This document shows, in pieces, positions 25,525 through 50,726 of a DNA stretch of 64,000 nt. Both the position numbers and the translations under genes were made by a program. The notes beneath the pieces are model-generated. The model saw only the letters and a list, made by a program, of their open reading frames with translations, made no database searches and was not told the origin of the DNA. Position 1 is the first letter of the stretch. Every line of letters begins with the position of its first letter. This DNA comes from Chthoniobacteraceae bacterium (lineage in GTDB: Bacteria; Verrucomicrobiota; Verrucomicrobiia; Chthoniobacterales; Chthoniobacteraceae), in NCBI GenBank assembly GCA_037189865.1, contig JBBCIW010000002.1:226759-290758 (forward strand), read 5' to 3'.

Positions 25525-26604
25525 ATGAGTTTCGTTACCCAGAATCAGATCGCCACCGAGGCAGGAGTTTCCCGTTCGACCGTGCAAGCCGTTCTCTCCA
25601 GCACATCGGCGCAAAGCCGCATCTCCCCCCAAGTGCGCGAGCATGTCCTCGCCGTCGCCACCCGCCTTAACTATCGGCCCAACCGCTTTGCACAGGCGAT
25701 GCGCAAGGGCAAGAGCGGGCTGATCGGCATCATCAACTTCGGCGATCTCTATGAATTGACCGAACGCAAGGTTCTGGCCGCCTCCGAAGCGATCGTACGG
25801 GAAGGATACGAACCGCTCGTGCAGGAATCGATCTGGTCCTCGCGCGGCAGCAAAGGGAGCGATGTCAGCCGGGAAGTATGCCGGAGGATGCTCGAATCGC
25901 GCGTGGAGGGGGTGCTTCTCGTTAATCCCGGCGGTGTCTTCCGGCAGGAACATCTCGACCAGCTCCTTAAAGCAGGCATTCCGGTGGTCACCTCTGGTGG
26001 GGCCGGACTCTTACAGGGCGTCCCGGATTTTGTTTCGGACCGCGAATGGGGCTACGAACAGGTGGCCCGCCATCTCTTCGGGCTTGGCTACCGCCGCCTT
26101 GCGCTCATCGCCATGCCCGACTCCGATGTCGGGGCGGCCACGGCGCGAGCCGCCGAAAACTTTGGTATCGAGGAGATGCCACCCGCTCTTTGGCCGCTCC
26201 ACCACCTGCCCGAACGACCCGGCCCCCACCAGATGCTCAACTTCCGGGTCGGTAAGGAGGCGATGACCACCCTGCTCGCCGGGCCGCACCGCCCGGAAGC
26301 GGTCCTTTGTAGTAACGACGAAGTGGCGCAAGGGGCGTTAACCGCATGCGGCGAGGCGGGGGTCCGCATCCCCGACGATCTCGCCGTGACCGGGTTCGAT
26401 GACTTTTTCTCTTCGGAATACGGCCTCGTACCGCTCACGACGCTGACTCACCCGATTGCAGAAATCTCCACCAAAGCGGTGGCGTGCCTGCTGGAACTCA
26501 TCCGCACCGGCCGCAAGCCGCAGACTCATGTCGAAAAAATCCGCGGCCATCTCACCATCCGCCGCTCCTGTGGCGCCTTCCTCCAAACCTCCCGATCCCT
26601 ATGA
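25525..26604 (+). CDS. LacI-family transcriptional regulator
   Basis: The N-terminal HTH is QNQIATEAGVSRSTVQAVLS. A periplasmic-binding-protein-like sugar-binding core follows, with VTGFDD near the C-terminus. Confidence 0.88.
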   Translation: MSFVTQNQIATEAGVSRSTVQAVLSSTSAQSRISPQVREHVLAVATRLNYRPNRFAQAMRKGKSGLIGIINFGDLYELTERKVLAASEAIVREGYEPLVQESIWSSRGSKGSDVSREVCRRMLESRVEGVLLVNPGGVFRQEHLDQLLKAGIPVVTSGGAGLLQGVPDFVSDREWGYEQVARHLFGLGYRRLALIAMPDSDVGAATARAAENFGIEEMPPALWPLHHLPERPGPHQMLNFRVGKEAMTTLLAGPHRPEAVLCSNDEVAQGALTACGEAGVRIPDDLAVTGFDDFFSSEYGLVPLTTLTHPIAEISTKAVACLLELIRTGRKPQTHVEKIRGHLTIRRSCGAFLQTSRSL

Positions 26605-28106
26605 AACTCCATCCCCATCCCTCCAAAACCGTGGCAGCGCTCTCGCTTGCCGTCGCCTTCCTCCTTCCGGTGCCGGCCGTGCGTGCCGCCGACGCCGCCT
26701 TCACCCTCACCCTCGTCAGCGGCACCAACAGTTGGGACTCCGCACCGTGGCAGCTTGTCTCCGGCTCCGGGTCGGTCCCCGGGGCAGGCGATGACATCCT
26801 TAGCCTGAGCGGCAACAGTTCGGCCATGTCCGAACTCTTTCTCAATGGCGCACAAGCCGTTGACAACCTGACCAAATCATCCAATGAAGCGTTCCGCATC
26901 TACAACTCCAACAGCGCCGGAGCCACCGGCAGCCTGACGATCTCGGAGGGGCTCACCGTGGAGAATGGCCAGATCTATCTGCGCAGTTTCGACCCGACCG
27001 GCCAACTGACCGTTTCCACCTCCACCCTCACCCTCGGCTCCACCACAGCCGGCACCACTGGTCGCCTCCAGTTCGGAGACCACGCCAACTATCGCAACGT
27101 CAACTTCACCGTCACCGGCACCACCACTCTCAAGGGAGTCAATGCTGCCGTGATCCTCGGCCTCGGGTTGACCGAAGCCGATAGCCTCATTGATCTAGGC
27201 CATCTCCTCTTTGACAACAACACCGGCGGGGGCATTTTCATCGAACACGGAGTGTTGAACGTCGCCAGCCTTCGCAATCAGGGGGGTGCCGAGGGTCTCT
27301 TTGTCGAAACGGGGGCGGCGCTTCGCCTCGATGGCGATGCAGGCGATCCCAATCACCCCTCGGGCGGAGCCAACTTCTCGCTGGCCATCTACAACGGCGG
27401 GCGGGTGGAAAAAACCGGCTCCAACCTGCAAACCCTTTCCAGAGCAGGCGGAAATCCCTACACAGGCGGCACCCTGATCTCCGGTGGCGTGCTGGCGATC
27501 TCCAACACCGAGAACAGCGGGATCGGACGCGGGGCCGTGGAAATCCGTGATAGCGGAACGCTGGCCGGGAGCGGACAGGTGCAACTCAACAACGCGAGCG
27601 TCACCGTCAAGGCCGGGGGAAGCATCGCTCCCGGAGCCGATGGCGTCGCCGGGTTCAACCAGCTCACCTTGAGCGGGATGAACAAATCGACCTCCACCGT
27701 GCTGGAGATGGAGGAGGGGGCAACCTTCCGCTTTGACCTCAACGCTTCGGGCGAGAGCGACCGCATCCTCTTTGGCCACTATGCTCCCGGCGATCTGGTG
27801 CTGGATAGCGACGGCATCACCGTGCATGTCAACGGCCCCCTTTCAGAAAACGTCACCTACACCCTTTTTGAGTTCTATTCCGATTATGTCGGATCAGCGA
27901 AGGTCTCCAGCGGCTTGAACTCAGGGTTCATCATGGGAAGCGGCTTTGAGGGTTTCAACGCCACGTTCCACTATGATGAAGCCGACTTCGGCGGCGTGGG
28001 GAGCATCACGATGACCGTCGCGGCCATTCCTGAACCGGGCACCGCCGGCTTGACGCTCGCCGCCCTTGCCCTCGCCGCCCTCCTCCACCACAAGCGGCGG
28101 CATTAA
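26601..28106 (+). CDS. Surface protein with autotransporter-associated beta-strand (PATR) repeats and a PEP-CTERM sorting tail
   Basis: The track ORF 26484..28106 is trimmed to ATG 26601 (ATGA overlap with the LacI stop). The signal peptide is MKLHPHPSKTVAALSLAVAFLLPVPAVRAADA. A PATR-type repeat is GGNPYTGGTLISGGVLAISN. The C-terminus IPEPGTAGLTLAALALAALLHHKRRH is PEP + TM + basic. Confidence 0.75.
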   Translation: MKLHPHPSKTVAALSLAVAFLLPVPAVRAADAAFTLTLVSGTNSWDSAPWQLVSGSGSVPGAGDDILSLSGNSSAMSELFLNGAQAVDNLTKSSNEAFRIYNSNSAGATGSLTISEGLTVENGQIYLRSFDPTGQLTVSTSTLTLGSTTAGTTGRLQFGDHANYRNVNFTVTGTTTLKGVNAAVILGLGLTEADSLIDLGHLLFDNNTGGGIFIEHGVLNVASLRNQGGAEGLFVETGAALRLDGDAGDPNHPSGGANFSLAIYNGGRVEKTGSNLQTLSRAGGNPYTGGTLISGGVLAISNTENSGIGRGAVEIRDSGTLAGSGQVQLNNASVTVKAGGSIAPGADGVAGFNQLTLSGMNKSTSTVLEMEEGATFRFDLNASGESDRILFGHYAPGDLVLDSDGITVHVNGPLSENVTYTLFEFYSDYVGSAKVSSGLNSGFIMGSGFEGFNATFHYDEADFGGVGSITMTVAAIPEPGTAGLTLAALALAALLHHKRRH

Positions 28107-28117
28107 CCATAGAGGCC

Positions 28118-28981
28118 ATGGCCACCTATCTACCCCCCTGCCGTCGGGCGGGCGCGACGTTGCTCGAAGGGCTCGTCGTCCTGGTCGTCCTCGGTGTGCT
28201 GGCCGCACTGCTTCTCCCGGTTTTGGGGAACATGCGCGCCCGCAATGCTCAGGTGACCTGTGTCAACAACCTGCGCCAGCTCGGCGCGGCGACCTTTCAG
28301 TACGCGGCCGATCACCGTCAGCTCCTCCCGGCCTACGCCATCGACGCCGGGCATGGCCCCCCCGGGCAAAGTCTGGTGACAGCGGGGACCACCGCCGGAT
28401 TATGGTTCTACAACCTTGCCCCCTACGTCGGTGTCCCCCGGCGTGAGGTGGACGGCTACTCTGCGCTGGAGCGAATGGAACTCGGGGCAACCGCTGCCGG
28501 GATCGAGAAGCCATGCATCTTCACCTGCCCCGCGCATTCACGCAAGGAGAGCAACTTCTACTGGACACCCGATCCGATGACGTGGCCCTCCACCATCCCC
28601 GTCAGCTACTCCACCAACGCCTTTCACATCGGCGCAGCAGCGAGCGCCGGCGGGTACACCGGTGAGGCGGATCGCGTCGTCCGCGGCTTCCCGCTCAGTT
28701 CCGTCGTCGCGCCGGGGCGCAAGATCTGGCTCATGGATTGCGCCGACGCCTACGGGGCGATTGTCTCCAGCCAGGGAAGATGGTCGCCGCAGGGGGATCG
28801 CAACTACAACACCCTCTATCAAGGCTTTACCCGCCATAGTGAAGGGGGCAACGCCCTCTTCTTTGACGGGCATGTCGAGTGGCTCCCGCTCACCACCTTT
28901 ACCGAACCGGCCAACGGCAGTTTCGATCGCACCATCCTGCTCTACTTCGCCCCCCTGCGCCACCCTTCTCAAGATCAATGA
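28118..28981 (+). CDS. Prepilin-type N-terminal domain protein, DUF1559 / H-X9-DG family
   Basis: RRAG|ATLLEGLVVLVVLGVLAALLLPVL, then TCVNNLRQLGAATFQY, then a C-terminal HSEGGNALFFDGH (H-X9-DG). Confidence 0.75.
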   Translation: MATYLPPCRRAGATLLEGLVVLVVLGVLAALLLPVLGNMRARNAQVTCVNNLRQLGAATFQYAADHRQLLPAYAIDAGHGPPGQSLVTAGTTAGLWFYNLAPYVGVPRREVDGYSALERMELGATAAGIEKPCIFTCPAHSRKESNFYWTPDPMTWPSTIPVSYSTNAFHIGAAASAGGYTGEADRVVRGFPLSSVVAPGRKIWLMDCADAYGAIVSSQGRWSPQGDRNYNTLYQGFTRHSEGGNALFFDGHVEWLPLTTFTEPANGSFDRTILLYFAPLRHPSQDQ

Positions 28982-31665
28982 ATCCCATCCACTCCTTCCT
29001 GCCGCGCTGTTTTTTTAGCTTATTGTTCCTTTTCTGCGCCCTCCCGCTCCGTGCTGAAACGCTCCCCCCTGAAACCTTTTTTGTCGCCCCCCATGGCAAA
29101 AAAGAGGGCATCGGAAGCCGTGAAGACCCGCTGGCGACCATCGAACAGGCTCTAGCCCTCCTCCCACCCGAAGAAGGGGGAACGATCGCGCTGCTCGGCG
29201 GCATTTACACCCAAACCGTCGATCTCCCGGAAACCACCGACGCAGGCCCCCTCCTGATCACCGCCGCACCGGGGGAGGAGGTCATCTTCGAGGGCGGCAC
29301 GAAGATCACGCAATGGGAGCCTGCCCCCGACGCGCCGGGGCTTTTCATCGTCCACGCTCCGGACCGCAAAACGATGTTCGGCCAGCACCAATGGTTTGAA
29401 ATCTGGGAGAACGGCAACCGGGTCCGCTACAACAGAGTCCCCGATGCCGCCAGCGTCGCGGCATGGCCCGGCAGCGTCACCTTTCTTGAAGGCGAACGCC
29501 TTCTCCTCCACCCCAGCCATGGCGGCACCCCCAAGGGGCTCGACCTCTGGCACAACCAGCAGGCGCAAGGGTGGTCCATCGAGCGCAGCAACACGACCGT
29601 ACGCGGTATCACCCTGCGCAACTACCTCGGAGGCGCTGAGGCACGCGCCGTGACGATCGGCAGGACGGCAACCGACGTCACCATGGAGAAGTGCCAGTTC
29701 ATCAACAGCTCCATCGGGGTCAGCACTTCCGGCACGAACGTCCGCATTGAACATTGCGAGTTCCGGGAAGTCGGGATGGGGCTACGCCACGCCGGACTCG
29801 ATCTGAGCGTGCGCCATTGCCTCTTCCAAAGCGCTGCCGGCCCGTTCGCCTTCCACGATTTTATCCCCGCCCTGCGCGATGCCCTCCGGATGTACTATCC
29901 GGCCAAAGGGATCACCTTTGAGCACTGCGTGACCGCCGGTTTCTGGGCCGGGATTTATATCAAGACCGATCCGGATGAGGCCCACCCCTGCCTGATCCGT
30001 CACAACACCTTTACCGATGGCATCCGTTCCGGGGCGATTGATCCCCAGCCTCACAGCCGCTACATCGCCAACATCGTCGGCCCGACAGAACCGGGGGTCG
30101 CCGATGACGGGGTGGCCCCCAACGGGCGCTACCTTGAAGAGATCGGAGCGAAACTCGAAGGGAACTATTTCTACGGCAAAGGGGGCGAGGCCCGTGGCAG
30201 CAACCTCGCCGGGCCGGAGCCGTTTGTCGACCTTGCAGCGGGGAAACTCGCTTTGCGCAAAGGCGTCGCGCTCCCGGCTTTTGAGGGAGATCGCCCACCG
30301 GGGGCCGGGCGGGCGAAAGTCTCATGGAGCAAGCACCTCGCAGCAAAGCTCACCCCTCCCAAAGTGGAGAAACGCCCATTCGCCTTCGTCGGCACTCCGC
30401 TGGCCACAGCCTCCAACGCCGGAGCGCTCATCATCGCCCGGTTCACCCACCCGGCTCAAGGGACACTGCGCTACCGCCTGGCCACAGAGACGCAATGGCA
30501 CACCGCCGCCGGACGCGACCACTCGCAGGAAGGCAACCCCTCCCTGCTCTTCGCTCTGATCGAAGGGGAACTGGAGGCCGAAAGCGATTACGAGTTCGAG
30601 ATCGAAGCCCTCGGCCCCAAGGGGGAGAAAGTCACCTCCGACCCCGTTTCCCTCCGCACGGAAGGCGGGCCAAAGGAGATCCGCGCCAGCGTCCCTGACG
30701 GCTTGCAGGCAGCCCTCGACCGCGCCCTCCCCGGCGATACGGTGGTACTGGAGAAAGGGGTCTACACCCGCCCCGCACTCCTCAACCACGGCGGGACGCC
30801 GGAGGCCCCGCTCACTCTGCGCGGAGCGGGGAAACGCGAGACAATCCTCGACGGCGGCAGGAAGATCGACCACCTCCTGCGTCTCAACAAGGCGCACCAT
30901 GTGGTGATCCGTGGGCTCCAGATCCGCTGGTTTCGCGAGATCGGCCTCCATGCCGTCGCCTCCTCTTACGGCACGCTCGAAGATTGCTGGATCTCCAACA
31001 ATTTCCTTGATGCTACCGGTGGAGCCAGTGGCGAGAACGTTCTGCTGGCAGACTCACCCCACTGGAAGATCCGGCGCTCCATCTTCACCGGTGCCAACAG
31101 CGGAGTTTCCATTTCCCACTCTCCCGGCCTGACCTTTGAGAACAATACCGCCTTCGGTAACCTGGGCGGCGGTCTGAGTATGGCTTATTCCAGCCGGGGG
31201 AGTCGTCTGATCCGTAACACCCTCAATTTTACGGGGAATGACTCGTTCTGGATCGTCGAAAAAGACCCCGCCGCCTTCGCCTCGCTCGTCGCTGAGGAGA
31301 ACAACTACGGCTCGCTTGTGAAGATGGAAAACAAATACCCCGAGAACCGCTTCACCCCCGCGTCGCACTACGGGCACATTAACGAAGCCAAGCGGATCGG
31401 CGTCTACGGGCCGATCCCCCCGGAGCGCAAGCGGATCGAAGGGTTGTCGGAGGCCGGGTTTACCGAAAGCCAATACCTCGATCTCCTCTTCTTCTACCGG
31501 ATGGACGATTGGCGGCAATTCTCCGGCAAGGATCGCACCTCCATCTTTGCCGACCCCCTCTTTGCCAACCCGAGGAAAGGGGATTTCCGCCTGCTGCCCG
31601 GCAGCCCCAACCTCCTGCCCGATGGCGGGCTGATCGGAGCCGAACCTGCAGCGAAACAACCGTAA
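28978..31665 (+). CDS. Secreted protein with two right-handed parallel beta-helix regions (pectate-lyase-fold, DUF1565-like N-caps)
   Basis: The track ORF 28879..31665 is trimmed to ATG 28978 (ATGA overlap). The signal peptide is MNPIHSFLPRCFFSLLFLFCALPLRA. There are two cap-like motifs, GGTIALLGGIYTQ and GDTVVLEKGVYTR, each followed by beta-helix-like repeats (e.g. NNTAFGNLGGGLSMAYS). Confidence 0.68.
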   Translation: MNPIHSFLPRCFFSLLFLFCALPLRAETLPPETFFVAPHGKKEGIGSREDPLATIEQALALLPPEEGGTIALLGGIYTQTVDLPETTDAGPLLITAAPGEEVIFEGGTKITQWEPAPDAPGLFIVHAPDRKTMFGQHQWFEIWENGNRVRYNRVPDAASVAAWPGSVTFLEGERLLLHPSHGGTPKGLDLWHNQQAQGWSIERSNTTVRGITLRNYLGGAEARAVTIGRTATDVTMEKCQFINSSIGVSTSGTNVRIEHCEFREVGMGLRHAGLDLSVRHCLFQSAAGPFAFHDFIPALRDALRMYYPAKGITFEHCVTAGFWAGIYIKTDPDEAHPCLIRHNTFTDGIRSGAIDPQPHSRYIANIVGPTEPGVADDGVAPNGRYLEEIGAKLEGNYFYGKGGEARGSNLAGPEPFVDLAAGKLALRKGVALPAFEGDRPPGAGRAKVSWSKHLAAKLTPPKVEKRPFAFVGTPLATASNAGALIIARFTHPAQGTLRYRLATETQWHTAAGRDHSQEGNPSLLFALIEGELEAESDYEFEIEALGPKGEKVTSDPVSLRTEGGPKEIRASVPDGLQAALDRALPGDTVVLEKGVYTRPALLNHGGTPEAPLTLRGAGKRETILDGGRKIDHLLRLNKAHHVVIRGLQIRWFREIGLHAVASSYGTLEDCWISNNFLDATGGASGENVLLADSPHWKIRRSIFTGANSGVSISHSPGLTFENNTAFGNLGGGLSMAYSSRGSRLIRNTLNFTGNDSFWIVEKDPAAFASLVAEENNYGSLVKMENKYPENRFTPASHYGHINEAKRIGVYGPIPPERKRIEGLSEAGFTESQYLDLLFFYRMDDWRQFSGKDRTSIFADPLFANPRKGDFRLLPGSPNLLPDGGLIGAEPAAKQP

Positions 31666-31677
31666 CGCTTTTTTCCC

Positions 31678-32913
31678 ATGACCACCCTGACTGCCCTGCC
31701 TGATGCTATTGAGCGCGACCGCGCCGTGGCTCTCGCCCTGCTCAAACCGTCCAAGCGCGATCTCGACTACGGCTTGGCGCTCCACCGCGAATGCCTCGTC
31801 GCCGAGTCGTACAGTCTCGGCCTGCATGCCCCGGTCGACGCTGAGGCCCTCGACCGCGAAGCCGCCTCCGGCGCCTCCGCCAGCGAATGGAGCGATCTCT
31901 TCGAAGATCACCTCATGCTCAACTGGACCTCCACCCCCGAGCTTCTTGCCCAATATCGGCAGGCGTGGGAGACTTCCGGCGTTGGCTGCCTCTTTATCAA
32001 CGCCGGGGAGGAGGGGAACCGTCCTGAGCGTCTCCTTAAACGGCTCGCCCGCTATACGGCGCTTATCGACACCTTGCCCGATCTCCTCGCACGGGCGACC
32101 ACGGCAGAGCAGATCCGCGCCAACCACCGTGCCGGGAAGCGCTCGCTCTGCTTCGCCCTCAACGGCGTTCCGCTCCCCGGGCGCTGCGAAAACGTGCAGG
32201 ATGAACTGCGGGAAATTCGCACCTTCGCCCGGCTCGGGGTGCGGATGATGCACCTCACCTACCAGCGGCGTAACCCGATCGGCGATGGTTGCGGGGAGAT
32301 CAACGACGGCGGGTTGAGCCACTTCGGCCACGCCGTCGTAGGGGAACTTAACCGGCTTGGCGTCGTCATTGACCTCGCCCATACCGGCTGGAAAACGTGT
32401 CTCGATGTCGCAAAGACGACGCAACGCCCCGTGCTGGTGAGCCATTCGGCGGTCCACGCCTTGAGCGGCCATCTGCGGGCCAAGCCCGACAACGTGATTC
32501 GCGCCGTGCTCGACACCGGCGGGACCATGGGGATCACCAACTACCCCGATTTTCTCGGTTTAAGCGGCGATCTCTCCGCGTTGCTGGAGCATATCGACTA
32601 CATGGTGCGGACCTTTGGGGAAGATTCCGTCACCATCGGCACGGACGATGCGTACAAAACAACCGATGCCGCCGAAACACTTGAAACGCTCCAGTGGCCC
32701 GCCGCCCGCGAACGCTGGGAGGGCCTCTGGCCCAATGAAACGCCGGGGAGCGATCCTCGCTGGACCAGCCCGGAGTTGCACCAAAGCATGGCGTGGACGA
32801 ACTGGCCTCTTTACACCGTCGGGATGGTGATGCGCGGCTATCGGGATGAAACGATCGCCAAGATTCTGGGAGGAAACCTCCTGCGGGTCATCGCCGCCAA
32901 CACCGAGCGATGA
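31678..32913 (+). CDS. Membrane (renal-type) dipeptidase, peptidase family M19
   Basis: 411 aa. MMHLTYQRRNPIGDGCGE, VIDLAHTG, VLVSHSAVHAL and TIGTDD fit the M19 metal-ligand pattern. Confidence 0.82.
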   Translation: MTTLTALPDAIERDRAVALALLKPSKRDLDYGLALHRECLVAESYSLGLHAPVDAEALDREAASGASASEWSDLFEDHLMLNWTSTPELLAQYRQAWETSGVGCLFINAGEEGNRPERLLKRLARYTALIDTLPDLLARATTAEQIRANHRAGKRSLCFALNGVPLPGRCENVQDELREIRTFARLGVRMMHLTYQRRNPIGDGCGEINDGGLSHFGHAVVGELNRLGVVIDLAHTGWKTCLDVAKTTQRPVLVSHSAVHALSGHLRAKPDNVIRAVLDTGGTMGITNYPDFLGLSGDLSALLEHIDYMVRTFGEDSVTIGTDDAYKTTDAAETLETLQWPAARERWEGLWPNETPGSDPRWTSPELHQSMAWTNWPLYTVGMVMRGYRDETIAKILGGNLLRVIAANTER

Positions 32914-32943
32914 AAAACATTGCCCCGCGCGGCAAACCGGGGC

Positions 32944-33681: not shown

Positions 33682-33732
33682 ACCCCCTTGCCACCCGCAC
33701 CCGGGTGGGGCAGGATAAGGTTGCTCTCGGCC

Positions 33733-40834: not shown

Positions 40835-40836
40835 CT

Positions 40837-41605: not shown

Positions 41606-41720
41606 CATGTCTACATGCAAGAAAAACTTAAATCTTTCCAACTCAACGCCTCTAAGGCACTAATCTTCCAAAGAATCGACATAAATTCATGATTTCCACT
41701 ATGTTATAATTTGTCTACAT
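41606..41720. promoter_or_regulatory. Divergent control region: two TGTCTACAT boxes plus an extended -10 (TGTTATAAT) for the GntR-PBP gene
   Basis: CATGTCTACATG is at 41606-41617 (5-bp arms CATGT/ACATG) and lies 22 nt upstream of minus-strand ATG 41583. TGTCTACAT recurs at 41712-41720. TGTTATAAT at 41702-41710 on the plus strand is a perfect extended -10 that abuts the second box. The whole 222-bp spacer is AT-rich. Confidence 0.4.
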
Positions 41721-41805
41721 ACTTACTAACTCAGATCAGCGAAAGAGAAATCTCATTTCTTTTCATCCCTCTCTCAGTTATCGGTACACAGACAAGCCAC
41801 CTGCC

Positions 41806-42906: not shown

Positions 42907-42910
42907 AAAA

Positions 42911-43645
42911 CTACCGCGTGGTATAAACACCGCTGCACCACGGTGGATTTCTAGAATAGTTGGTGCGCCGGTAAAGATCATTGCGCACGTGGGCTACTTC
43001 GATGTGCCCGTCGCAGAACATCAGGGTAGCATACCCTTGGTGCCTGCCGGTCACGATGGTATTCTCATTGGTAAGATCAGCCGCAGCAGCGAAATCAGGG
43101 TAGAATTCATACCAACCGCCGGCGCTCTGCTTGAGTTCACGTGATTCCGCCAGCATCAACACCTTCGCCGGATCGCGAATCTCATCCAGCCGCGCCCGCC
43201 GTTGCAGGGTGGGATAGCCGTTATTGGGCATCAATCCGAATTTATTGACTCCAAAGCTGATATTGGCCCAAGGGTTCTGCGGTGTCTTGAGCAGTAACGA
43301 GCGTTCCGGGCGTTCACTCACGGGGTGAGCGGGACAATAGAAGGTATCAATATCCTTGAGATAACCTTCATGGTAAAGCCGCCCGGACCAGATCGTGGCA
43401 TAGGGGGCGGTGGTTGTCTCGCCGCTATAGGGAAACACCCGTCCATGCTCTCCCACAAAGAGAAGCAACGCGCTGCCGACCTGCCGCATCCTTGCAAGGC
43501 AGACCCCCTGATCCCCCTTACCGCGCAAATAACCTGCCGTTGCCCCCAATAACACCACGGCAATCGCCACGATGAAAAGAGCCACCATCGCCTCTGTCAA
43601 AGTGAAGGCAGCGACCAACTGAGGGGAACCTGATCGCTTCTTCAT
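42911..43645 (-). CDS. Prepilin-type N-terminal domain protein, DUF1559 / H-X9-DG family
   Basis: PQLVAA|FTLTEAMVALFIVAIAVVLLG, then VCLARMRQVGSALLLF, then a C-terminal HQGYATLMFCDGH (H-X9-DG). It has an ATGA overlap with the upstream PATR gene. Confidence 0.75.
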   Translation of the reverse strand: MKKRSGSPQLVAAFTLTEAMVALFIVAIAVVLLGATAGYLRGKGDQGVCLARMRQVGSALLLFVGEHGRVFPYSGETTTAPYATIWSGRLYHEGYLKDIDTFYCPAHPVSERPERSLLLKTPQNPWANISFGVNKFGLMPNNGYPTLQRRARLDEIRDPAKVLMLAESRELKQSAGGWYEFYPDFAAAADLTNENTIVTGRHQGYATLMFCDGHIEVAHVRNDLYRRTNYSRNPPWCSGVYTTR

Positions 43646-45093
43646 TTCAACGCTCTACGGTTACGATGCCGCCATCCTGCCAGCACGACCACCCCTGCGG
43701 CAAGATAAGAAAGCGTCGCCGCCTCCGGTACGGCTACAAACTCCAGCACGAGATCGCTCCCATCGCTCCGCACAGTAAAGATTCCTTGCGTCTCCCATTG
43801 GGCGAGGTCAAAGGCGAAGCGTTCCGTGAAGACACCGGGGCTCATCCCCAAAAGCGCCCCCTCCACCTCTGCGATCGTCCATTGGTAAGTCTGGTTGGCT
43901 ACCCATGCAGACGACGCCCCTTCGCTCAAGGCAAGAGTAAAGGTCTGCGAAGAGGAGAGCGCACTCAAATCAAGATCACCCAGAATAGCTAGCGAACCGC
44001 CGGTCGTCGACGTCAGAGTCAGCTCCAAGCCCCCCCCTTGCGTCCAGCTTTGACTTGCCCCGAAGGTCAGTTCATCCGCCCCGGGGGCGAGCGTCTGTCC
44101 TGAGCCGATCGAAAGACTCTGGTTAATCCGCCCCGTGCCACTGATCCGCCCCGACGTTAAGGTTAGCGGAGCCGTCACCGCAACGCTGCTGCGGGTAGCC
44201 AACTCGCCACCATTGATCACGATAGCCGAACTCGCATTGATCGACCCGCTCCCCGAGAGCGTTAACCGCCCGGCCTCAATCGTCGTTGTCCCGGTGTAAG
44301 AATGCGTTCCGGTTAGTTGCTGCTCCCCTGCTCCCTGTTTAACGATGGAGAGCTTGGCGGTGGTGGCTCCAGTGCTTTTGTCTAACAAAAGGCCACTGAA
44401 ACTCACCGGCGTTGGACTGGTGTTATTGAGATAAAGCGTACCGGCGGTCGCCGTCGCGCTAGCATTGGAAGCACGAATCGTCCCCGCTCCGGTGAGGGAG
44501 GAGATTTCCACGCTTCCATTGACCGAAGCATTGCTGATCGTCAGCGTTCCCGCAACATCGAGTCGGCCCAACTTCGGCCTTTGGGTCATAGCGTCAATAT
44601 TGAAAAATGCGCCACTGGCTAATGTCGTGCTTCCGCTGACCGTCAGGGAATTTAACGTTGTCCCTGCATTAAAGCCGAGGCGGAAATGTCCGCCCTCCAC
44701 GTTCAACGTTTGCGCACTCACCGAAAAGCTACCTCCGAGTAATTGAAGCTGTCCGCTGCGATGTGCAAAATTGACGACATCCAGCTCATAAGCCCCTCCT
44801 CCGGTCATCTGAAGGTTGAATCCACCGCTCCCTACCGTTGTTAAAGCCAGAAGATCGAGATTCTGATAAATCGTCATCCCAAGATTGCCCCCCGACGTAT
44901 CAAAGTTAATCTGTGCCGTATCACCGGGACCAGAAGGGTAGCCACCTGAAGGCGAACCCTCAATCAACCATTCTCGGGACGTCCAAGTCCCACCGGGCGG
45001 AAGATCGACGGTATAGTCAGCAGCGCGGCCCGACACCGACAGGAAAGCCAGCGCCAGAATACTTAGAAGCGGAGGGTGGGTGGGTGTTTTCAT
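43642..45093 (-). CDS. Surface protein with PATR repeats and a degenerate PEP-CTERM-like tail (VPEA)
   Basis: The signal peptide is MKTPTHPPLLSILALAFLSVSGRA. The PATR motif is GAGEQQLTGTHSYTGTTTIEAGRLTLSGSG. The C-terminus VPEAATLSYLAAGVVVLAGWRHRNRRALK is PE(A) + TM + basic. Confidence 0.7.
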   Translation of the reverse strand: MKTPTHPPLLSILALAFLSVSGRAADYTVDLPPGGTWTSREWLIEGSPSGGYPSGPGDTAQINFDTSGGNLGMTIYQNLDLLALTTVGSGGFNLQMTGGGAYELDVVNFAHRSGQLQLLGGSFSVSAQTLNVEGGHFRLGFNAGTTLNSLTVSGSTTLASGAFFNIDAMTQRPKLGRLDVAGTLTISNASVNGSVEISSLTGAGTIRASNASATATAGTLYLNNTSPTPVSFSGLLLDKSTGATTAKLSIVKQGAGEQQLTGTHSYTGTTTIEAGRLTLSGSGSINASSAIVINGGELATRSSVAVTAPLTLTSGRISGTGRINQSLSIGSGQTLAPGADELTFGASQSWTQGGGLELTLTSTTGGSLAILGDLDLSALSSSQTFTLALSEGASSAWVANQTYQWTIAEVEGALLGMSPGVFTERFAFDLAQWETQGIFTVRSDGSDLVLEFVAVPEAATLSYLAAGVVVLAGWRHRNRRALK

Positions 45094-45099
45094 AAAGGG

Positions 45100-46383
45100 T
45101 TAGGGATAGGATCGGGTGGACGAAGCAGCGAAAATCGACGGTACGATGTGGAAGGTTCCGCGCCAATGGTCCTCGCCCCAGTGAGCCGTCTTTGCGGAGA
45201 CCTCCATCTCATAACCACCTGTCAGCAAAAAATCGGTGGGAACCTCCCATTGATGATCCAGTTTCCCGGAAAGGGGGAAGCGCGTTTCCCAACTTCGTTG
45301 ACTATTTAACTGGCGCACGGTCACCGTGACCTCGCCCTGCGCTGCAGAAGCGGGATGGAGCGCAAGGCTCAAGGCGGGACGGAGCGGCAATTCGCCGACC
45401 TCAACCACAGGCCATAATCCGGCAACACTCAACAACCGTGGCGTTCGCACGCTGCCGACCCAGCCCGAGACCAGTCGCCCGCTCTCCGCGTCAACCAATT
45501 CCACAGCCAACGTATGGCCTCCTGCGCGGGCAAGCCTAACCTCCCACTCCGTTTCGATCGCCCCATCCACGGGAGTCAATACCGCCCCGTGGGGCGCACG
45601 TTCGCTCCCTTCCCCGACTTGTAAGCGGTAACTACCCGATGGCACCCCCTCCCAACGCAACGCCAGCCGATGCTCCCCCAATAGCAACCCCCGCAGCGGC
45701 GGCAACACTGCCCGGACCATGCCTCCCTGCGGCGGCTGCCCCTGCCATTGTAAAAGGCCGTGGCGCTCGCGCTCGCCATAGCCTTTGCGAACCGGAGCCC
45801 ACGATTGATAAATGAGCCGCTCGCGCCATGTCCGCGCGACATTGAGGCGCCATGGCGAACCAGCCTTTGCTTCAAGGTTAGGCAAGGCAATCGCCATCTC
45901 AACACTCCAGCGCCCCCCGCCGCGATGCACCGCCGACTCCCAGAGAGGCGACCAGTCGCTCTTCCCCTTCGCCCCCACCTCCTGAAAAAACGTCGCTCCA
46001 TGGGCATTGACGACAAACTGGTAAAGCGGCCCCCCTTCGGTATGCAAAAACAGTTCCACCGCATCATCAGAACAGACCGCGCTGGTTCCCGACTCCTTGG
46101 TCACCACCAGCACCTCCTCCTGCTCGCTCTCCACCCGCACCAGCAACGTCTCCCCGGCCCGCACCATCTGAAAAGTCACCTTGCCTAGCGGAGCGTCATC
46201 CCCGGGATGGCGTTTGAGGGTATAGAATTGATCATAGCGTGGAAGCTCTTTCCAGAACGCCTCCTGCGCCCGGCCATCGACCTGCCAGCGTTCCTCCACC
46301 TGCGCCACTTCCACCACCGGCAGCGTTTCCGCGCCAGCGTGCACCGACCACGCCAACACCGTCAGCAGAAGCCAAGGCTTCAC
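45100..46383 (-). CDS. Secreted CBM9/DOMON-like carbohydrate-binding-module protein
   Basis: GTG start (GTGA overlap with the upstream stop). The signal peptide is MKPWLLLTVLAWSVHAGA. WQVDGRAQEAFWKELPRYDQFY ... DDAVELFLHTEGGPLYQFVVNAHG parallels the N-terminal module of the 962-3952 protein. Confidence 0.5.
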   Translation of the reverse strand: MKPWLLLTVLAWSVHAGAETLPVVEVAQVEERWQVDGRAQEAFWKELPRYDQFYTLKRHPGDDAPLGKVTFQMVRAGETLLVRVESEQEEVLVVTKESGTSAVCSDDAVELFLHTEGGPLYQFVVNAHGATFFQEVGAKGKSDWSPLWESAVHRGGGRWSVEMAIALPNLEAKAGSPWRLNVARTWRERLIYQSWAPVRKGYGERERHGLLQWQGQPPQGGMVRAVLPPLRGLLLGEHRLALRWEGVPSGSYRLQVGEGSERAPHGAVLTPVDGAIETEWEVRLARAGGHTLAVELVDAESGRLVSGWVGSVRTPRLLSVAGLWPVVEVGELPLRPALSLALHPASAAQGEVTVTVRQLNSQRSWETRFPLSGKLDHQWEVPTDFLLTGGYEMEVSAKTAHWGEDHWRGTFHIVPSIFAASSTRSYP

Positions 46384-49300
46384 TTCGCCACCCCCTCCTC
46401 CCCACCTTGCAACTTGAGGATATGGGTAGCCAAGCCCCAGCGAACCCTCTCCAGCGCTTCGCTTCCATTGAGTCCATGGCGGATCTCGCCCCCGGCTTCC
46501 TTGGGATCATCACTCTCAATCAGGCGCCGGGCATCGACCGGGAGACGCTCGCGCAAGTCGGCGAGGAACTGCTCTGCCTCAGCGCGCGCCTCCTCGAGAG
46601 CGCGATTCCCCTTAGCGGCAGCAATCGCGGCTTCCAGCGTGGCAAGGTAGCGATGATCGGTGATCCCGGCCCGCGCCTCCTCCCCATCAAGCGTAAAGAT
46701 CGGCCCTTTCGGTGTGGGATAGCTAATGGAGTAGGCCGTTTGCTCCCGCGACGGATTGGCGACGTCATCCCAAGTATAAGCGGTATGCGAGCGATAATGC
46801 CACTGGAAACGCCCACCGGCTTTCATCGCCCAAGTCCAAAGGCCCTGTGTCAGCCGTTGTTTGCCGACATTATAGATCCAGAATGCCGATCGGCTATCCG
46901 TAATAAAGCGGACCGACTCCTCGTTAATCGGGAAAGCATAGTTAGGCATCGAGAGATCAAGATGCGGCACCATCACCCGTTCATACGGGCCATTGAGAGA
47001 GGCAATCGTGCGAATCCCCAACCGTTTACGCACCTCTTTAAGCGAAGCGGCTACCTCCGCGCCAAGGTCTGCCCCCGGCTGGCCGTAGTTGCTCCGCTCA
47101 TCACTGATATAGTAAAGAATCTCCGGCCAATCGTTCTTGCGCCGTGTCACTTCGAGCATCTCAACCAATTCCGCATAAGCCGCATACCACGCAGGGGTGA
47201 AGGGAGGCTTGAGCGAATCATCCAGCCACGAAAGGCGATTGGGAGTACCAGGCGTCGGTCCGTAAGGAGTCATACCATAGAATGGCATCGGCCCGAACCC
47301 GGCTTCCTTATAGAGATTCATCCAGAGCGTGAAGCGATCCCCCTCGATGAGGCTGATCTTTCCATCCTCAAAACGGAGATCTCCACGAAGATCGTCCCCG
47401 AAGGCGACGGAATTCACCCCCAGTGTCCGCATCGCCGCTAGTTCACGCCGTTCCTGTTCAATAATCAGATCGCGAAGCTCGAGAGCCTCTTTCTTCAGAT
47501 CAGCTCCATAGACATTACGATGCCAGAAGAAAGCGTACCAAGGCTCGGAGGGCTTGTAATAGAACCCCTGCACAATCGGAAGCGGCTCCAATTCAAACCC
47601 CAACACCCGCAAGCGCACCGGCAGCAATGTCTCCGCCCCGCCTTCCTCTTTTAACCGCAAGTGTCCGCTATAGACTCCAGCGGGTGTCCCTTTGGGCACC
47701 TCAACATTGACCCACCAACTCCAGTTCAACCCTTTGCGGATCGGCACCGGGCGCGGATGATCAAGCGGGAGAGCGCGCACCTGATAGCGATACCCTCCCG
47801 ATTCGCCTTTCGCCCCGGCGTTCCAGAAAAGGTAACGGGCAATCCCTACCTTCAGCGCCCCGGCCTCAATCCGACCGGCCTCCCCTTCAAGCGCCAGCGC
47901 TTCGAGCTCCACCGTTCCCTTGTCTTCGAGCCCGTGAAGCGTGAACCAGAGCGGCACCACCTCGCCCGGCGTCCCGAAGCTCTCCAGCCTTTCGAGCCGA
48001 TCACTACCCTTCACCGGACGGGCATATGGATAGCGAGGCTCCTCCACCGGACGATGGTACAAGGCGAATCCCCGCTCCTTCTCTTGTGCATTCGGGCTCC
48101 AATCCCCCTCCTTGTCCGCTGGAGCCGGCACTTCATGAAGAACGGTATCACGGCGGCGTTCAGCGGCGATTCCCTCCACCACCGTTTGCAAGGCGACATC
48201 CCCCTTTTTAGGGAGAATCACCAAGGCACCCAGCGGGAGGTTCTCCCACTCGACCAGAAGCCGCCCTTCCTTCACCTCGACGCTCGTGGTGAACTCACGA
48301 AACCGCGGCACAACAAAGTCGTTATAATAGTCCGCCCCCGGCAGCCAGAATTTATCGTACCCATCGTAAAGCCCGCGCATCAGAATCTCAGCAGGGGTTT
48401 CCTGCTCGGTCCAAAGCTCCTTCCCGTTTACTCGGAGTTGCGAATTAAAATAGTAGCGACGCACCGCCTGATGAGTGGAAACATCCCCGCTCAAAAGCCA
48501 GAGATCATAGTTCCCATCAGGCAGGTCGACACGGAAAGTTGCCTTCTTTGCGGAGATCACATCGCGCCCTAGCGCTTCCGGGCGGCCACTATCGAACGCT
48601 GCCGGATCAGTCATTCCGCTAAAACCCCATCCTCTGTCAGGTGTATAGCTATCCTTGGGCGAGACCGCTTCAAAGCGATCGAACACCGCAGACCCCTCCG
48701 GGCCGAAATCAAAGAAACGACCGCCCGCCTTCTCCTGTGCCAGCATCGCTTCATCGCGAGCACGGGCGAGGATCACCGGAGCCACCCTCACGCGGGAGAG
48801 CGCCACCGCCCGCTGGCCGCCAGCCGCAGCGCGGAAGTCAAGCTCCGCCAACTGGACCCCCTTGGGAATGACGACCTGATAGTGACGCGACTTCCATCCA
48901 TCCGTGTTGGTTTCATCACTAGTGAGCAACGAAGCCCGATGGAGAATCGTGGTTTCTTTCAGAGGGATGCGGGTTCGATGCCCTTCCTCATCGAGATAAT
49001 AGAGCCAGACATAAAGACTCAACCCATAGTTAGGATGCAGCGGAGCATCCTTCAACAGATAGTCGAAGCTAACCCGGTAGCTCAGTCCCGGTTCTACCCG
49101 AAAACGCGCCGAGCTAAATCCCGGCTCCTTCTCCTCTCCGATCCCCAGAACCAGCGCGGCACGCTCCTCCACGGTCGCCAGTTCAGCATTGATCGCACCC
49201 GGCAGTGGCGCGCTCCCCTCCTGTAACGTCAACGCACCGGCATCAAGAAGATTGGCTTCCAAAGCAGGAGCCTCGCCGGTGGCTTCCTTTTCCAGAGTAT

Positions 49301-49580
49301 AGCGAAAGCGTGTCTCCCCTTCGACCTCCATCCCCGGCACGCTCCATAGGAGCACCGTCCCCTTCTCCTCCCGGCGGAGCGTAGCCGCAAGCGCCTCCCC
49401 GCTCGCCTCATGCACCACCCGAACCCCTTTCCATGCTTCGTCAGACTGTGAAAGCGGGAGCCATGCCGCCGCCACACTAGGATGCGGCTGCTGAGTCACA
49501 TCGACGACGCCCGTGGGCGATGTAGCCCAAAGCGGCTGGGCAACCAGCAGAAAGATCAGGGGGAAAACTCGAATCATCAT
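46380..49580 (-). CDS. Large secreted protein, putative polysaccharide-active enzyme (family not recognised)
   Basis: 1066 aa. The signal peptide is MMIRVFPLIFLLVAQPLWA. The N-terminal half is beta-rich. The C-terminal half has a TIM-barrel-like pattern (LGVNSVAFGDD, ILYYISDERSNYG, RFQWHYRSH). The functional call is inference only. Confidence 0.55.
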   Translation of the reverse strand: MMIRVFPLIFLLVAQPLWATSPTGVVDVTQQPHPSVAAAWLPLSQSDEAWKGVRVVHEASGEALAATLRREEKGTVLLWSVPGMEVEGETRFRYTLEKEATGEAPALEANLLDAGALTLQEGSAPLPGAINAELATVEERAALVLGIGEEKEPGFSSARFRVEPGLSYRVSFDYLLKDAPLHPNYGLSLYVWLYYLDEEGHRTRIPLKETTILHRASLLTSDETNTDGWKSRHYQVVIPKGVQLAELDFRAAAGGQRAVALSRVRVAPVILARARDEAMLAQEKAGGRFFDFGPEGSAVFDRFEAVSPKDSYTPDRGWGFSGMTDPAAFDSGRPEALGRDVISAKKATFRVDLPDGNYDLWLLSGDVSTHQAVRRYYFNSQLRVNGKELWTEQETPAEILMRGLYDGYDKFWLPGADYYNDFVVPRFREFTTSVEVKEGRLLVEWENLPLGALVILPKKGDVALQTVVEGIAAERRRDTVLHEVPAPADKEGDWSPNAQEKERGFALYHRPVEEPRYPYARPVKGSDRLERLESFGTPGEVVPLWFTLHGLEDKGTVELEALALEGEAGRIEAGALKVGIARYLFWNAGAKGESGGYRYQVRALPLDHPRPVPIRKGLNWSWWVNVEVPKGTPAGVYSGHLRLKEEGGAETLLPVRLRVLGFELEPLPIVQGFYYKPSEPWYAFFWHRNVYGADLKKEALELRDLIIEQERRELAAMRTLGVNSVAFGDDLRGDLRFEDGKISLIEGDRFTLWMNLYKEAGFGPMPFYGMTPYGPTPGTPNRLSWLDDSLKPPFTPAWYAAYAELVEMLEVTRRKNDWPEILYYISDERSNYGQPGADLGAEVAASLKEVRKRLGIRTIASLNGPYERVMVPHLDLSMPNYAFPINEESVRFITDSRSAFWIYNVGKQRLTQGLWTWAMKAGGRFQWHYRSHTAYTWDDVANPSREQTAYSISYPTPKGPIFTLDGEEARAGITDHRYLATLEAAIAAAKGNRALEEARAEAEQFLADLRERLPVDARRLIESDDPKEAGGEIRHGLNGSEALERVRWGLATHILKLQGGEEGVAK

Positions 49581-49616
49581 AAAGAAAGGTTATGGAAGAG
49601 GGAGCGCTGTTAGGTC

Positions 49617-49660
49617 GTGTCGTCACGAGAGTGGCTGTCAAGTCACTCTCGTGACGACAC
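49617..49660 (-). terminator. Very strong stem-loop spanning the LacI stop codon (candidate terminator/attenuator or RNA-stability element)
   Basis: The arms are perfect 17-bp repeats GTGTCGTCACGAGAGTG (49617-49633) / CACTCTCGTGACGACAC (49644-49660). The stem can extend by G-U, C-G and U-A pairs, leaving a 4-nt loop that contains the stop (TGA at 49638-49640). No U-tract follows on the minus strand. Confidence 0.4.
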
Positions 49661-50726
49661 TCCCTACGCTCCCGCGTTCGATCACTTGCATTTCAACAAT
49701 CTCGCGACGGCGAACCGCGTCCGGGTTTCCAGTCACAATCTCCTTGAGCAGCAGAAACATGCGACGGCCAATCTCGCGGCGAGGGTCGTGTAGGGTCGTC
49801 AGCCCCGGTCGGCTCACGAAGGCGCACTGGGCATCATCAAACCCAAAAAGAGAGAGGTCATTCGGCACGCTCAACCCGAGCGATTGCACAGCGGCCATGG
49901 CGTCACATGCAAGGTCGTCATTGGTCGTGAAGTAAAAGCGCGGGTCTTTCTCCGGGTTCCACTTCCGGAAGGTCTCCGCAATCGCCGCCTGCCGCTCCTC
50001 ACGGGAAAGGGCAAGATCATAGCGATGAACCACTTCCAACCCGCACGGTTCCTCCAGTAACAGAGCGGCTGCGCTGCATTCCTGCACACGATACGCCGTG
50101 TTGGTATAGCTCAAAAAGCCAAAACGCCGATGCCCCTTCTCCAGTGCGTAGCGCCATGCGCGGCGGTAGCCATAAACACGGTCGGCATAGACCATGGCAC
50201 CGGGGTAGTCATCGAAATCCCGGGCGATATTGGAATGGGCCACCATCGGCACAGCATTCTCCCAAAGACAGTTAATCGTCGCGGGCAGAAGCCGCATGTT
50301 GAACATTCCCGCAAAACCACCCCCTTCGATCAACTCGCGCACAAAAGCCAACTCGTCCGTCCCCAAAGGGAAATCAACGATCTCGATGCGATCGCGCGTC
50401 TGCGCTGCTGCCTCAAGAATCCCCTCGACATAATCCCAGAAGAAGCTACGCCCCTCTCTCGGCCCAACTCCTATATCAGCATAGGGTAGCAAAAACGGTA
50501 ACTTCCTACCCTCCTGCTCTTTAAGCCAACGCTCCGGGGCGCGCGTCGGGAGACGGTAGCCCGCCTGCCGGGCATATTGCCGGATGCGCCGCGCCGTCGC
50601 CGGACGAACATTGGAAAGCCCCCGCAACGCTCTTGAAACGGTGATGTGCGAGACGCCGCACGCCTGCGCAATGCTTTCAAGTGTCATGGAACCTACAATC
50701 TGAGGGGAGCCTTTCTGATTTGTCAT
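49638..50726 (-). CDS. LacI-family transcriptional regulator
   Basis: The HTH is MTLESIAQACGVSHITVSRALRG. A PBP-like core follows, with LFGFDD near the C-terminus. It is the first gene of minus-strand cassette C. Confidence 0.88.
   Translation of the reverse strand: MTNQKGSPQIVGSMTLESIAQACGVSHITVSRALRGLSNVRPATARRIRQYARQAGYRLPTRAPERWLKEQEGRKLPFLLPYADIGVGPREGRSFFWDYVEGILEAAAQTRDRIEIVDFPLGTDELAFVRELIEGGGFAGMFNMRLLPATINCLWENAVPMVAHSNIARDFDDYPGAMVYADRVYGYRRAWRYALEKGHRRFGFLSYTNTAYRVQECSAAALLLEEPCGLEVVHRYDLALSREERQAAIAETFRKWNPEKDPRFYFTTNDDLACDAMAAVQSLGLSVPNDLSLFGFDDAQCAFVSRPGLTTLHDPRREIGRRMFLLLKEIVTGNPDAVRRREIVEMQVIERGSVGSVVTRVT

Follow-up and report, generated by a model that had tools for sequence, protein, structure and literature searches.

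What does a pilin-like protein do in an operon with a LacI or GntR regulator at its head or opposite to it? This question is raised by a 64,000-nucleotide stretch of the genome of a soil-type verrucomicrobium, a Chthoniobacteraceae bacterium (contig JBBCIW010000002.1, positions 226,759 to 290,758; here called the window), for which a preliminary description made from the sequence had drawn three adjacent gene cassettes. Listing and translating the open reading frames (ORFs) recovered 18 of 18 genes where they had been drawn, and family matches bore out the map: cassette A (25525-34197) on the plus strand and cassettes B (34194-41583) and C (42911-50726) on the minus strand, all three of them compact. 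Each cassette holds one gene for a prepilin-like protein with an H-X9-DG motif (HX9DG; DUF1559), one for a beta-helix protein that has PATR repeats and a tail of the PEP-CTERM type (the PATR protein), others for enzyme-like proteins that are exported, and one for a regulator of the LacI or GntR family. We propose, tentatively, that such cassettes are substrate-inducible operons for the extracytoplasmic degradation of polymers, in which a private pilin-like subunit would couple exports or substrate to a shared machine. The general reading of the cassettes as a module seems to us somewhat probable; the more specific step in which the subunit would act as a cargo adaptor is possible but doubtful.

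The HX9DG family is very large. Its profile matched 36,766 clusters (50% identity) at E ≤ 1e-30, and planctomycete genomes carry 68 to 74 copies each, with two essential genes in Planctopirus limnophila (PMC10632474, PMC2754498). As of 2023 the family was termed "of unknown function" and "the biggest paralog group" (PMC10632474), and our literature search found no paper that ties HX9DG/DUF1559 to LacI-controlled or carbohydrate-active-enzyme operons or that assigns a function to it.

Are these proteins pilins? The H-X9-DG motif is present in the HX9DG proteins of all three cassettes and in that of a fourth HX9DG gene of the window. The proteins of cassettes A and B matched TIGR04294 (24.3 and 23.5 bits; cut-off, 19) and PF07596 (DUF1559; 42.3 and 33.4 bits). 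The cassette C protein gave no hidden Markov model (HMM) match at E ≤ 0.01; it has the H-X9-DGH motif, its prepilin N-terminus reads AFTLTE, and BLAST aligned it with HX9DG genes of other loci at 6e-17. A class III leader, Glu5 and a hydrophobic N-terminal alpha-1 helix, with matches to N_methyl and to the N-terminus of GspG, place the proteins in the type IV pilin/pseudopilin class, and the leader with Glu5 is kept family-wide. The AlphaFold2 (AF2) model of the cassette A protein (pLDDT, 85.5; pTM, 0.83) consists of a ∼50-residue alpha-1 helix (residues 15 to 65) and a four-stranded head, the last hairpin of which is the H-X9-DG motif; its fold is pilin-like, with the packing of helix on sheet read from the secondary structure. 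In a sequence search of the PDB, the family profile matched the alpha-1 helix of GspG, PilA and PilE (up to 1e-15). Foldseek with the model gave no significant match for the head domain and found the alpha-1 helix alone in solved pilins. Because the sequence and fold searches both recognize the alpha-1 helix alone, we consider the head to be without a solved relative. In an alignment of 41 HX9DG sequences, C48, D250 and H252 are invariant, and H240, C137-P138, W96, Y103 and Y164 are nearly so; the conserved Cys pair suggests a disulfide, and the His/Asp/His set suggests a metal site. The HX9DG protein is, as far as its model and leader predict, a type IV pilin-class subunit.

Is the pairing of this protein with the PATR protein more than chance? 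In the window alone, at least two of the three PATR genes adjoin one of the four HX9DG genes, which among ∼50 genes has a probability of about 0.06. Because the window alone is weak, the case for a pattern rests on other genomes. We therefore rely on a scan from the HX9DG side that used one genome per species and covered 34 loci from Chthoniobacterales, Lentisphaerota, Planctomycetota and Opitutaceae, to which come five metagenome loci, three of them duplicates of loci already counted. Genes were called and flagged with a purpose-made caller that had been checked on the window. Since this caller misses a few HX9DG genes that lie under a long antisense ORF (loci L011 and L012), the neighbor counts are conservative. 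The statistics refer to 45 HX9DG genes, with genes at least four positions away serving as background (n = 254).

The preliminary description had proposed a count of PATR/PEP-CTERM genes beside HX9DG genes, and this count came out in excess: a PATR/PEP-CTERM gene stands at position −1 in 15 of 43 cases versus 8 of 254 in the background (odds ratio, 16.5; P = 5e-9). The excess has a direction, as there was no enrichment at +1 (1/45 versus 8/254). Position +1 belongs instead to large proteins, with 22 of 45 HX9DG genes followed by a protein of at least 700 aa (background, 14/254; P = 4e-12). Among the same-strand large proteins at this position (n = 21), 17 of 21 have a signal peptide and about one-third have a lipobox. 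Regulators of the LacI/GntR type occupy −1 or −2 in 17 of 84 cases versus 6 of 254 (P ≤ 1.2e-4 at each position). The adjacency of PATR and HX9DG was also significant in loci ascertained via HX9DG alone (P = 3.5e-5).

Viewed from the PATR side, 13 of 15 homologues with 35 to 59% identity to the cassette A protein have a prepilin/DUF1559 gene directly behind them, and in the Pfam-annotated contigs (L001, L002, L003 and L005) the next gene after PATR is N_methyl/DUF1559. The pair is kept despite differences in the regulator (LacI or AraC) and in the enzyme (beta-helix with M19 or M14, PcRGLX, DUF6259). In locus L050, as in cassette B, the two genes share one operon and do not adjoin. Nine triads in the order PATR, HX9DG, ∼930-aa beta-helix protein revealed correlated divergence of all three members (37 to 63% identity; Mantel P ≤ 0.0045). 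In addition, a single metagenome-assembled genome (MAG) of the Chthoniobacteraceae, GCA_035555975, carries at least six anciently diverged cassettes in the order PATR, HX9DG, large enzyme (L002, L008, L010, L011, L015 and L016), with the ∼930-aa beta-helix protein in five of them and PcRGLX in one. The paralogues have diverged from one another as far as they have from copies in other genomes. The correlated divergence and the at least five ancient paralogous triads in one MAG argue that PATR, HX9DG and beta-helix protein are kept as a unit. With order, strand and short junctions preserved across ancient paralogues and across genomes, the view that these cassettes are a recurrent regulator-headed module and not an accident of copy number held up.

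How widely does this layout extend? In HX9DG-ascertained loci of Chthoniobacterales, PATR is at −1 in 9 of 15 cases versus 6 of 113 in the background. In those of Lentisphaerota, LacI is at −1 in 7 of 14 cases (versus 1/64) and a large protein is at +1 in 8 of 16; PATR is at −1 in 0 of 14, and these loci have no PATR gene at all. PATR is thus no universal partner of the HX9DG protein. The widest core is regulator, HX9DG and large exoenzyme, in that order, which is present in Lentisphaerota as well, and the PATR partner is confined to Chthoniobacterales. Four loci from Victivallis and relatives (L029, L030, L033 and L035) read LacI, HX9DG (∼235 aa), a ∼1250-aa GH42-like protein and a ∼630-aa DUF5696/GH101-like protein, with no PEP-CTERM protein.

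The PATR repeat (TIGR02601) was above the cut-off in all three PATR proteins. The PEP-CTERM tail of cassette B was recognized (21.1 and 20.9 bits), that of cassette A fell just under the Pfam cut-off (18.6 versus 20.7 bits), and that of cassette C (VPEA, a transmembrane [TM] helix and RHRNRR) is a PEA variant seen by eye and unrecognized by the PEP-CTERM HMM. The AF2 model of the cassette A protein (pLDDT, 88.7) is all-beta, with a terminal TM helix at residues 479 to 500. Its best Foldseek match was CapCBM89 (7jvi), followed by the autotransporter passengers Ssp, EspC, pertactin and Hap; the likeness to CBM89 is at the level of the fold only (TM score, 0.39 to 0.46; 12% identity). CapCBM89 is a noncatalytic xylan-binding beta-helix (7jvi; PMC8810776), and a mucin-binding beta-helix carbohydrate-binding module (CBM) has been reported in Akkermansia, which is likewise verrucomicrobial (bioRxiv 10.1101/2025.09.11.675649). 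These two relatives in fold make a role in binding plausible, and judging from the model, the PATR protein, which looks noncatalytic, is most plausibly a polymer-binding surface protein held by its PEP-CTERM anchor. We ruled out that it is a type Va autotransporter, as it has no C-terminal beta-barrel translocator: no Autotransporter domain was matched in the cassette proteins, and the PATR model ends in a single TM helix. Homologues of the cassette A protein are few: about a dozen could be detected, to which a profile search added only three distant proteins.

Which enzymes accompany the pair, and how would their products be taken up? Matches above curated cut-offs comprised both LacI proteins, the GntR helix-turn-helix (HTH) domain, Peptidase M19, DUF2092, Beta_helix/NosD and PF12708 (formerly Pectate_lyase_3). 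Among the enzyme-like assignments, then, PF12708 and Beta_helix were above the cut-off and GH123_N, GH76 and CBM9 below it. In related loci, the enzymes beside HX9DG are largely carbohydrate active (GH42-like, PcRGLX, heparinase-like, DUF5696/GH101-like, DUF4838, BNR/sortilin-like, and sulfatase), with M14 peptidases also found. The claim that the partners are carbohydrate-active enzymes is thus sustained by the partners elsewhere and less so by the window, several proteins of which gave sub-threshold matches or none. Neither the 18 cassette proteins nor the Pfam-annotated related loci had a TonB_dep_Rec, Plug or SusD match. Genes for multi-pass membrane proteins (at least five TM segments) numbered 0 of 215 in the 45 HX9DG operon runs versus 18 of 385 among other genes (P = 3e-4). 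Because SusC/D and an inner-membrane transporter are both absent, the cassettes are not Sus-type polysaccharide utilization loci (PULs). The suggestion that they do what SusC/D-type loci do is therefore unsupported, given the lack of a TonB-dependent receptor, SusD or any multi-pass transporter; from gene content, only the binding and degradation half of that role is plausible.

How might such an operon work? A LacI or GntR repressor, which heads or faces each operon, would respond to a breakdown product of the substrate. Expression of the operon would supply exported enzyme-like proteins, most of them distant relatives of carbohydrate-active beta-helix, alpha/alpha-barrel and GH123-like folds, with peptidases in cassette A. 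A prepilin peptidase would process the HX9DG protein, and the processed protein would enter a shared type II secretion/type IV filament machine encoded elsewhere. In that machine it could serve as an operon-specific adaptor, by which the large exoproteins of the operon and the PATR protein would be exported or displayed, much as the Pul secreton does with pullulanase. Breakdown products would enter via transporters encoded elsewhere and would then release the repressor. We favor the cargo-adaptor role over other roles for the subunit because the sharpest positional signal is the large signal-peptide or lipoprotein enzyme directly downstream of HX9DG.

Several observations weigh against this proposal. 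The window contains no type II secretion or type IV pilus assembly genes, no prepilin peptidase gene and no exosortase gene. The residue at −1 of the leader is Gly in cassette A and Ala, not the canonical Gly, in cassettes B and C. The M19 protein and the 431-aa and 473-aa proteins of cassette B lack a signal peptide, which adds to the sub-threshold or missing matches of several of the window's "enzymes." One locus (L007) has LacI, PATR and a beta-helix protein in this order and no HX9DG gene. Of four remote HX9DG contexts, none has a regulator and two have unannotated neighbors with no recognizable enzyme; in the other two, HX9DG ends an enzyme operon (sulfatase-sulfatase-HX9DG and SGL-like-370 aa-HX9DG). 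Remote family members are thus not always accompanied by a regulator or a recognizable enzyme. The P values given above are optimistic, since the loci are related paralogues and orthologues, and seven of the loci in the statistics were ascertained through PATR. Finally, the results fit a subunit that captures substrate as well as one that adapts cargo.

That last alternative is the strongest rival, and we consider it rather unlikely. Here a retractable type IV-like fiber would have the HX9DG protein as its substrate-specific subunit or tip; with help from PATR, the HX9DG protein would bind polymer and pull it toward or into the periplasm for cutting. Uptake of this kind was proposed for Planctomycetes after the internalization of dextran (Boedeker et al. 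2017, as summarized in PMC12078418). The HX9DG and PATR proteins are private to each operon and have diverged strongly, as would be expected of substrate specificity, and the lack of a transporter in the cassettes, the confident pilin-like model of HX9DG and a PATR fold nearest to a carbohydrate-binding beta-helix all fit as well. However, neither a binding site nor a lectin-like fold is recognizable in the HX9DG head, the cassettes have no linked retraction ATPase, and Verrucomicrobia are not known to take up whole polymers. Moreover, the strongest positional signal, a large enzyme with a signal peptide or lipobox downstream, fits export at least equally.

It is improbable that the cassettes build or edit the surface matrix of the cell itself, a role in which the beta-helix enzymes would be epimerases or lyases of polymers made by the cell. 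PEP-CTERM sorting has been associated with exopolysaccharide production (Haft 2006, as summarized in PMC3048395). The N-terminus of the 606-aa beta-helix protein of cassette B matches mannuronan (C5-)epimerases besides GH55 glucanases and a pectin lyase, a GT4 glycosyltransferase gene and GlgB lie just upstream of cassette A, and TamA/TamB lie beside cassette C. Nevertheless, LacI/GntR regulators with sugar-binding domains typify catabolic operons, and the cassettes contain no glycosyltransferase, polymerase or exporter genes. The partner enzymes in related loci are likewise catabolic (GH42-like, PcRGLX, sulfatases, heparinase-like, and M14/M19 peptidases).

Could the HX9DG protein be no filament subunit at all and instead be a membrane-tethered periplasmic solute-binding or sensor protein that feeds a transporter or signals to the regulator? 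Pfam files DUF1559 as SBP_bac_10, a 2009 paper describes it as a solute-binding family (PMC2754498), and the N-terminal helix could be a mere membrane anchor. We regard this as very unlikely. The confident AF2 model is pilin-like with no match to periplasmic-binding-protein folds, the operon runs hold no ABC or other multi-pass transporter, and the class III leader with Glu5 is a family-wide feature; on the model and the absence of transporters we reject the solute-binding reading of the Pfam name. That the two families are simply so numerous that they adjoin without functional meaning is hardly credible and was rejected, for the weak window statistic and the huge HX9DG family are outweighed by the directional enrichment, by a pair kept with different regulators and enzymes, by short or overlapping junctions and by partners that have co-diverged.

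The features of the cassettes are given in Table 1. All 14 intergenic junctions within them are ≤57 nt. The statement that most are 4-bp overlaps was too strong, as 6 of 14 overlap by 4 bp; those given for the PATR-HX9DG junctions, an 11-nt gap in A and a 4-bp overlap in C, were correct. Some of the earlier labels fared less well. A "propeller-like" 473-aa protein found zero support in family or PDB searches, and the "alpha/alpha toroid" of the 431-aa protein comes down to sub-threshold GH76, Pec_lyase, PL2 and C5-epimerase matches; a PDB sequence search with either protein gave no match. The "CBM9-like" label of the 427-aa protein is backed by a CBM9_2 match at E = 0.028 and by the homology that the protein shares with the N-terminal part of others that match CBM9_1 weakly. 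Of the "GntR-PBP" regulator, the GntR HTH was confirmed and the PBP half was undetected by Pfam. Both LacI proteins combine an N-terminal LacI HTH with a periplasmic-binding-protein-like effector domain.

Table 1. Positions of cassette genes and associated features in the window, with the evidence for each.
Feature	Position	Strand	Evidence
Fourth HX9DG gene	19956..20693	-	H-X9-DG motif; outside the range of the preliminary description
Candidate LacI operator pair, cassette A	25467..25511		Two copies of the palindrome TGGCACGTGCC(A) with starts 33 bp apart
LacI-family regulator, first gene of cassette A, 4-bp overlap with next gene	25525..26604	+	LacI 1.7e-9, Peripla_BP_3 7.8e-27
PATR beta-helix protein, cassette A, signal peptide, IPEP + TM helix + KRRH tail	26601..28106	+	TIGR02601, AF2
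HX9DG/DUF1559 prepilin-like protein, cassette A	28118..28981	+	DUF1559, TIGR04294, AF2 model
895-aa exported protein, cassette A, two parallel beta-helix regions	28978..31665	+	Beta_helix/NosD
Peptidase M19 dipeptidase, cassette A, no signal peptide	31678..32913	+	E = 3.3e-62
DUF2092 (LolA-like) periplasmic protein, cassette A, signal peptide	32920..33681	+	Family match
169-aa ORF, cassette A, no family match, gene status uncertain	33688..34197	+	ORF call
PATR/PEP-CTERM protein, 693 aa, last gene of cassette B	34194..36275	-	PEP-CTERM 21.1 bits, TIGR02601 24.9 bits
473-aa protein, cassette B, no signal peptide	36304..37725	-	No family or PDB relative
431-aa protein, cassette B	37722..39017	-	Sub-threshold alpha/alpha-barrel carbohydrate-active families
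606-aa exported beta-helix protein, cassette B	39014..40834	-	PF12708 3.2e-11; 3eqn 3.8e-10
HX9DG/DUF1559 prepilin-like protein, first gene of cassette B	40837..41583	-	DUF1559, TIGR04294
GntR-family regulator, 366 aa, divergent from cassette B	41806..42906	+	GntR HTH
HX9DG prepilin-like protein, last gene of cassette C, 4-bp overlap with PATR gene	42911..43645	-	Motif, BLAST
PATR protein, cassette C, VPEA + TM helix + basic tail	43642..45093	-	PATR 3.3e-8
427-aa exported protein, cassette C, CBM9-like N-terminal domain	45100..46383	-	CBM9_2 E = 0.028 and homology
1066-aa exported protein, cassette C	46380..49580	-	Weak (marginal) GH123 N-terminal and galactose-binding-like domains
RNA hairpin at end of cassette C LacI gene	49600..49675	-	-54.2 kcal/mol, z -9.65
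LacI-family regulator, cassette C	49638..50726	-	Family match

In cassette A, the TGGCACGTGCC(A) pair lies 14 bp upstream of the LacI ATG, and these are the sole two copies in the window; they are plausibly the putative operator of an autoregulated operon. The 895-aa protein has marginal PL6 similarity, and its family occurs in 10 loci, each time after an HX9DG gene. The 169-aa ORF is uncertain as a gene because an antisense ORF (33652-34209) competes with it. In the cassette A family, the ∼930-aa beta-helix protein is paired with an M14 carboxypeptidase or an M19 dipeptidase and once with PGA_cap (L005, 8150-10624; L008, L014 and L017 at +2; the window, 31678-32913; L001 and L021). Given these peptidases and PGA_cap, the substrate of cassette A may be no pure glycan, and the gene content suggests a polymer that contains peptide, for instance poly-gamma-glutamate or material akin to peptidoglycan.

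In cassette B, the HX9DG and GntR genes are separated by an AT-rich region of 222 bp (41584-41805). This region contains TGTCTACAT twice (at about 41609 and 41715) together with face-to-face promoter-like hexamers, and the TGTCTACAT copies are possible GntR operator half-sites. Promoter and terminator scans gave chance-level results. For the PATR protein of cassette C, the public NCBI gene call is 359 aa (P0121), and the full ORF and the Logan call are 483 aa (P0120); the short call drops the N-terminal signal peptide. The hairpin at 49600-49675 has 25-nt arms, a 4-nt loop and no U-tract, and covers the LacI stop codon and the 57-nt gap before the 1066-aa gene. It could act as an insulator, a processing site or a stabilizer between the regulator and the enzymes. 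Directly upstream of cassette C are genes for TamA (Omp85/POTRA) and TamB (50889-57118, minus strand). Beta-helix proteins of the autotransporter type receive help from the TAM complex in other bacteria, and the placement next to cassette C may be a coincidence.

The flanks of the cassettes are housekeeping genes (heme synthesis, GlgB, TamA/TamB, and IlvC). GC content is 0.56 to 0.59 in cassettes B and C (34000-50000), where third-position GC is also lower, and 0.62 to 0.64 in cassette A (26000-34000) and the flanks, a contrast that hints at a different history or expression level. The fourth HX9DG gene belongs to a minus-strand cluster (19298-21667) of low local GC (0.52), in which it comes after the gene for a GspG/PilA-like prepilin (20963-21667; GFTLIELLVV) and overlaps one for an alpha/beta-hydrolase; neither a PATR gene nor a regulator adjoins it. 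A further carbohydrate-type cluster on the plus strand (872-9523) encodes an aminotransferase, a GFO/IDH/MocA oxidoreductase, two BNR_4 proteins, a GntR-FCD regulator and a 1026-aa protein. The last has a CBM9-like N-terminus homologous to that of the 427-aa protein of cassette C and a GH42-like C-terminus. Since this cluster has neither HX9DG nor PATR, not every cluster of its kind includes them. Elsewhere on the plus strand (14007-17279), a DnaK-like Hsp70 gene is followed after 6 nt by a gene for a 550-aa protein that ends in an FGE-sulfatase (SUMF1-like) domain, a pairing that we leave unexplained.

What would the proposed operons mean for the lineage? In soil, oceans and guts, bacteria of the Planctomycetes-Verrucomicrobia-Chlamydiae (PVC) group rank among the main degraders of complex polymers. 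They have no Sus-type loci, and their means of polymer binding, cleavage and uptake are recognized as a question still to be answered (PMC12078418). The layout of regulator, PATR where present, HX9DG and exoenzyme links a huge family to predicted inducible degradation operons and sets it, for the first time, in a consistent genomic context. With this layout the question also becomes testable, since each cassette offers one regulator, one pilin-like gene and presumed cargo or substrate partners, and cassette A also a candidate operator. A bolder version, to be held with reservation, concerns the HX9DG proteins as the largest paralogous family of many PVC genomes. They would be exchangeable subunits of a single type IV filament machine, each specific to a substrate, and each catabolic operon would add its own in order to capture polymer or export enzymes. 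If true, PVC bacteria would forage for glycans by a modular system built on filaments, as an alternative to the SusC/D type, and the PEP-CTERM beta-helix proteins would be the lineage-specific binding partner in Chthoniobacterales.

How do the cassettes compare with known systems? They resemble the Sus-like PULs of Bacteroidota in being regulator-linked, presumably substrate-specific clusters of putative surface binding proteins and exported enzyme-like proteins, with several seemingly specialized copies side by side. They differ in having no SusC TonB-dependent transporter, SusD or any other transporter, in their LacI/GntR regulators (in place of hybrid two-component systems, extracytoplasmic-function sigma/anti-sigma pairs or SusR), and in a pilin-like subunit and a PEP-CTERM beta-helix protein where Sus-like loci have lipoprotein surface glycan-binding proteins. 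The Pul secreton of Klebsiella oxytoca is sugar regulated, and its pilin-class pseudopilins export the large lipoprotein glycanase pullulanase to the cell surface. The large proteins after HX9DG genes in related loci similarly often have lipobox signal peptides. However, Pul has a fixed set of five pseudopilins together with its machine genes, whereas each cassette has a single private pilin-like gene, no machine genes and an HX9DG head without a solved relative.

The fishing-rod hypothesis for Planctomycetes (Boedeker et al. 2017; PMC12078418) likewise has dedicated PVC pilin-like proteins handle polymeric sugars. As summarized in PMC12078418, it names no gene family or loci, whereas the cassettes provide concrete candidates, in a verrucomicrobium, that are equally compatible with export. 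Type IV pilus tip complexes of PilY1/PilC and minor pilins (PMC12918778) place the gene for a large nonpilin adhesin beside pilin-class genes, which recalls the translationally coupled PATR and HX9DG genes; PATR, in contrast, is an unrelated beta-helix with its own PEP-CTERM anchor and is accompanied by one pilin-like gene, not a four-gene minor-pilin set. With type Va autotransporter passengers and CBM89, the PATR proteins share the PATR repeat and a predicted right-handed beta-helix, and their PEP-CTERM tail stands where the beta-barrel translocator of an autotransporter would be. The parts of the cassettes are thus from known families (the type IV pilin class, HX9DG/DUF1559, PEP-CTERM and LacI), in an architecture that we did not find described in the literature. 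There is a real chance that the system is more distinct still, if the private pilin is the specificity element of a filament-based form of foraging.

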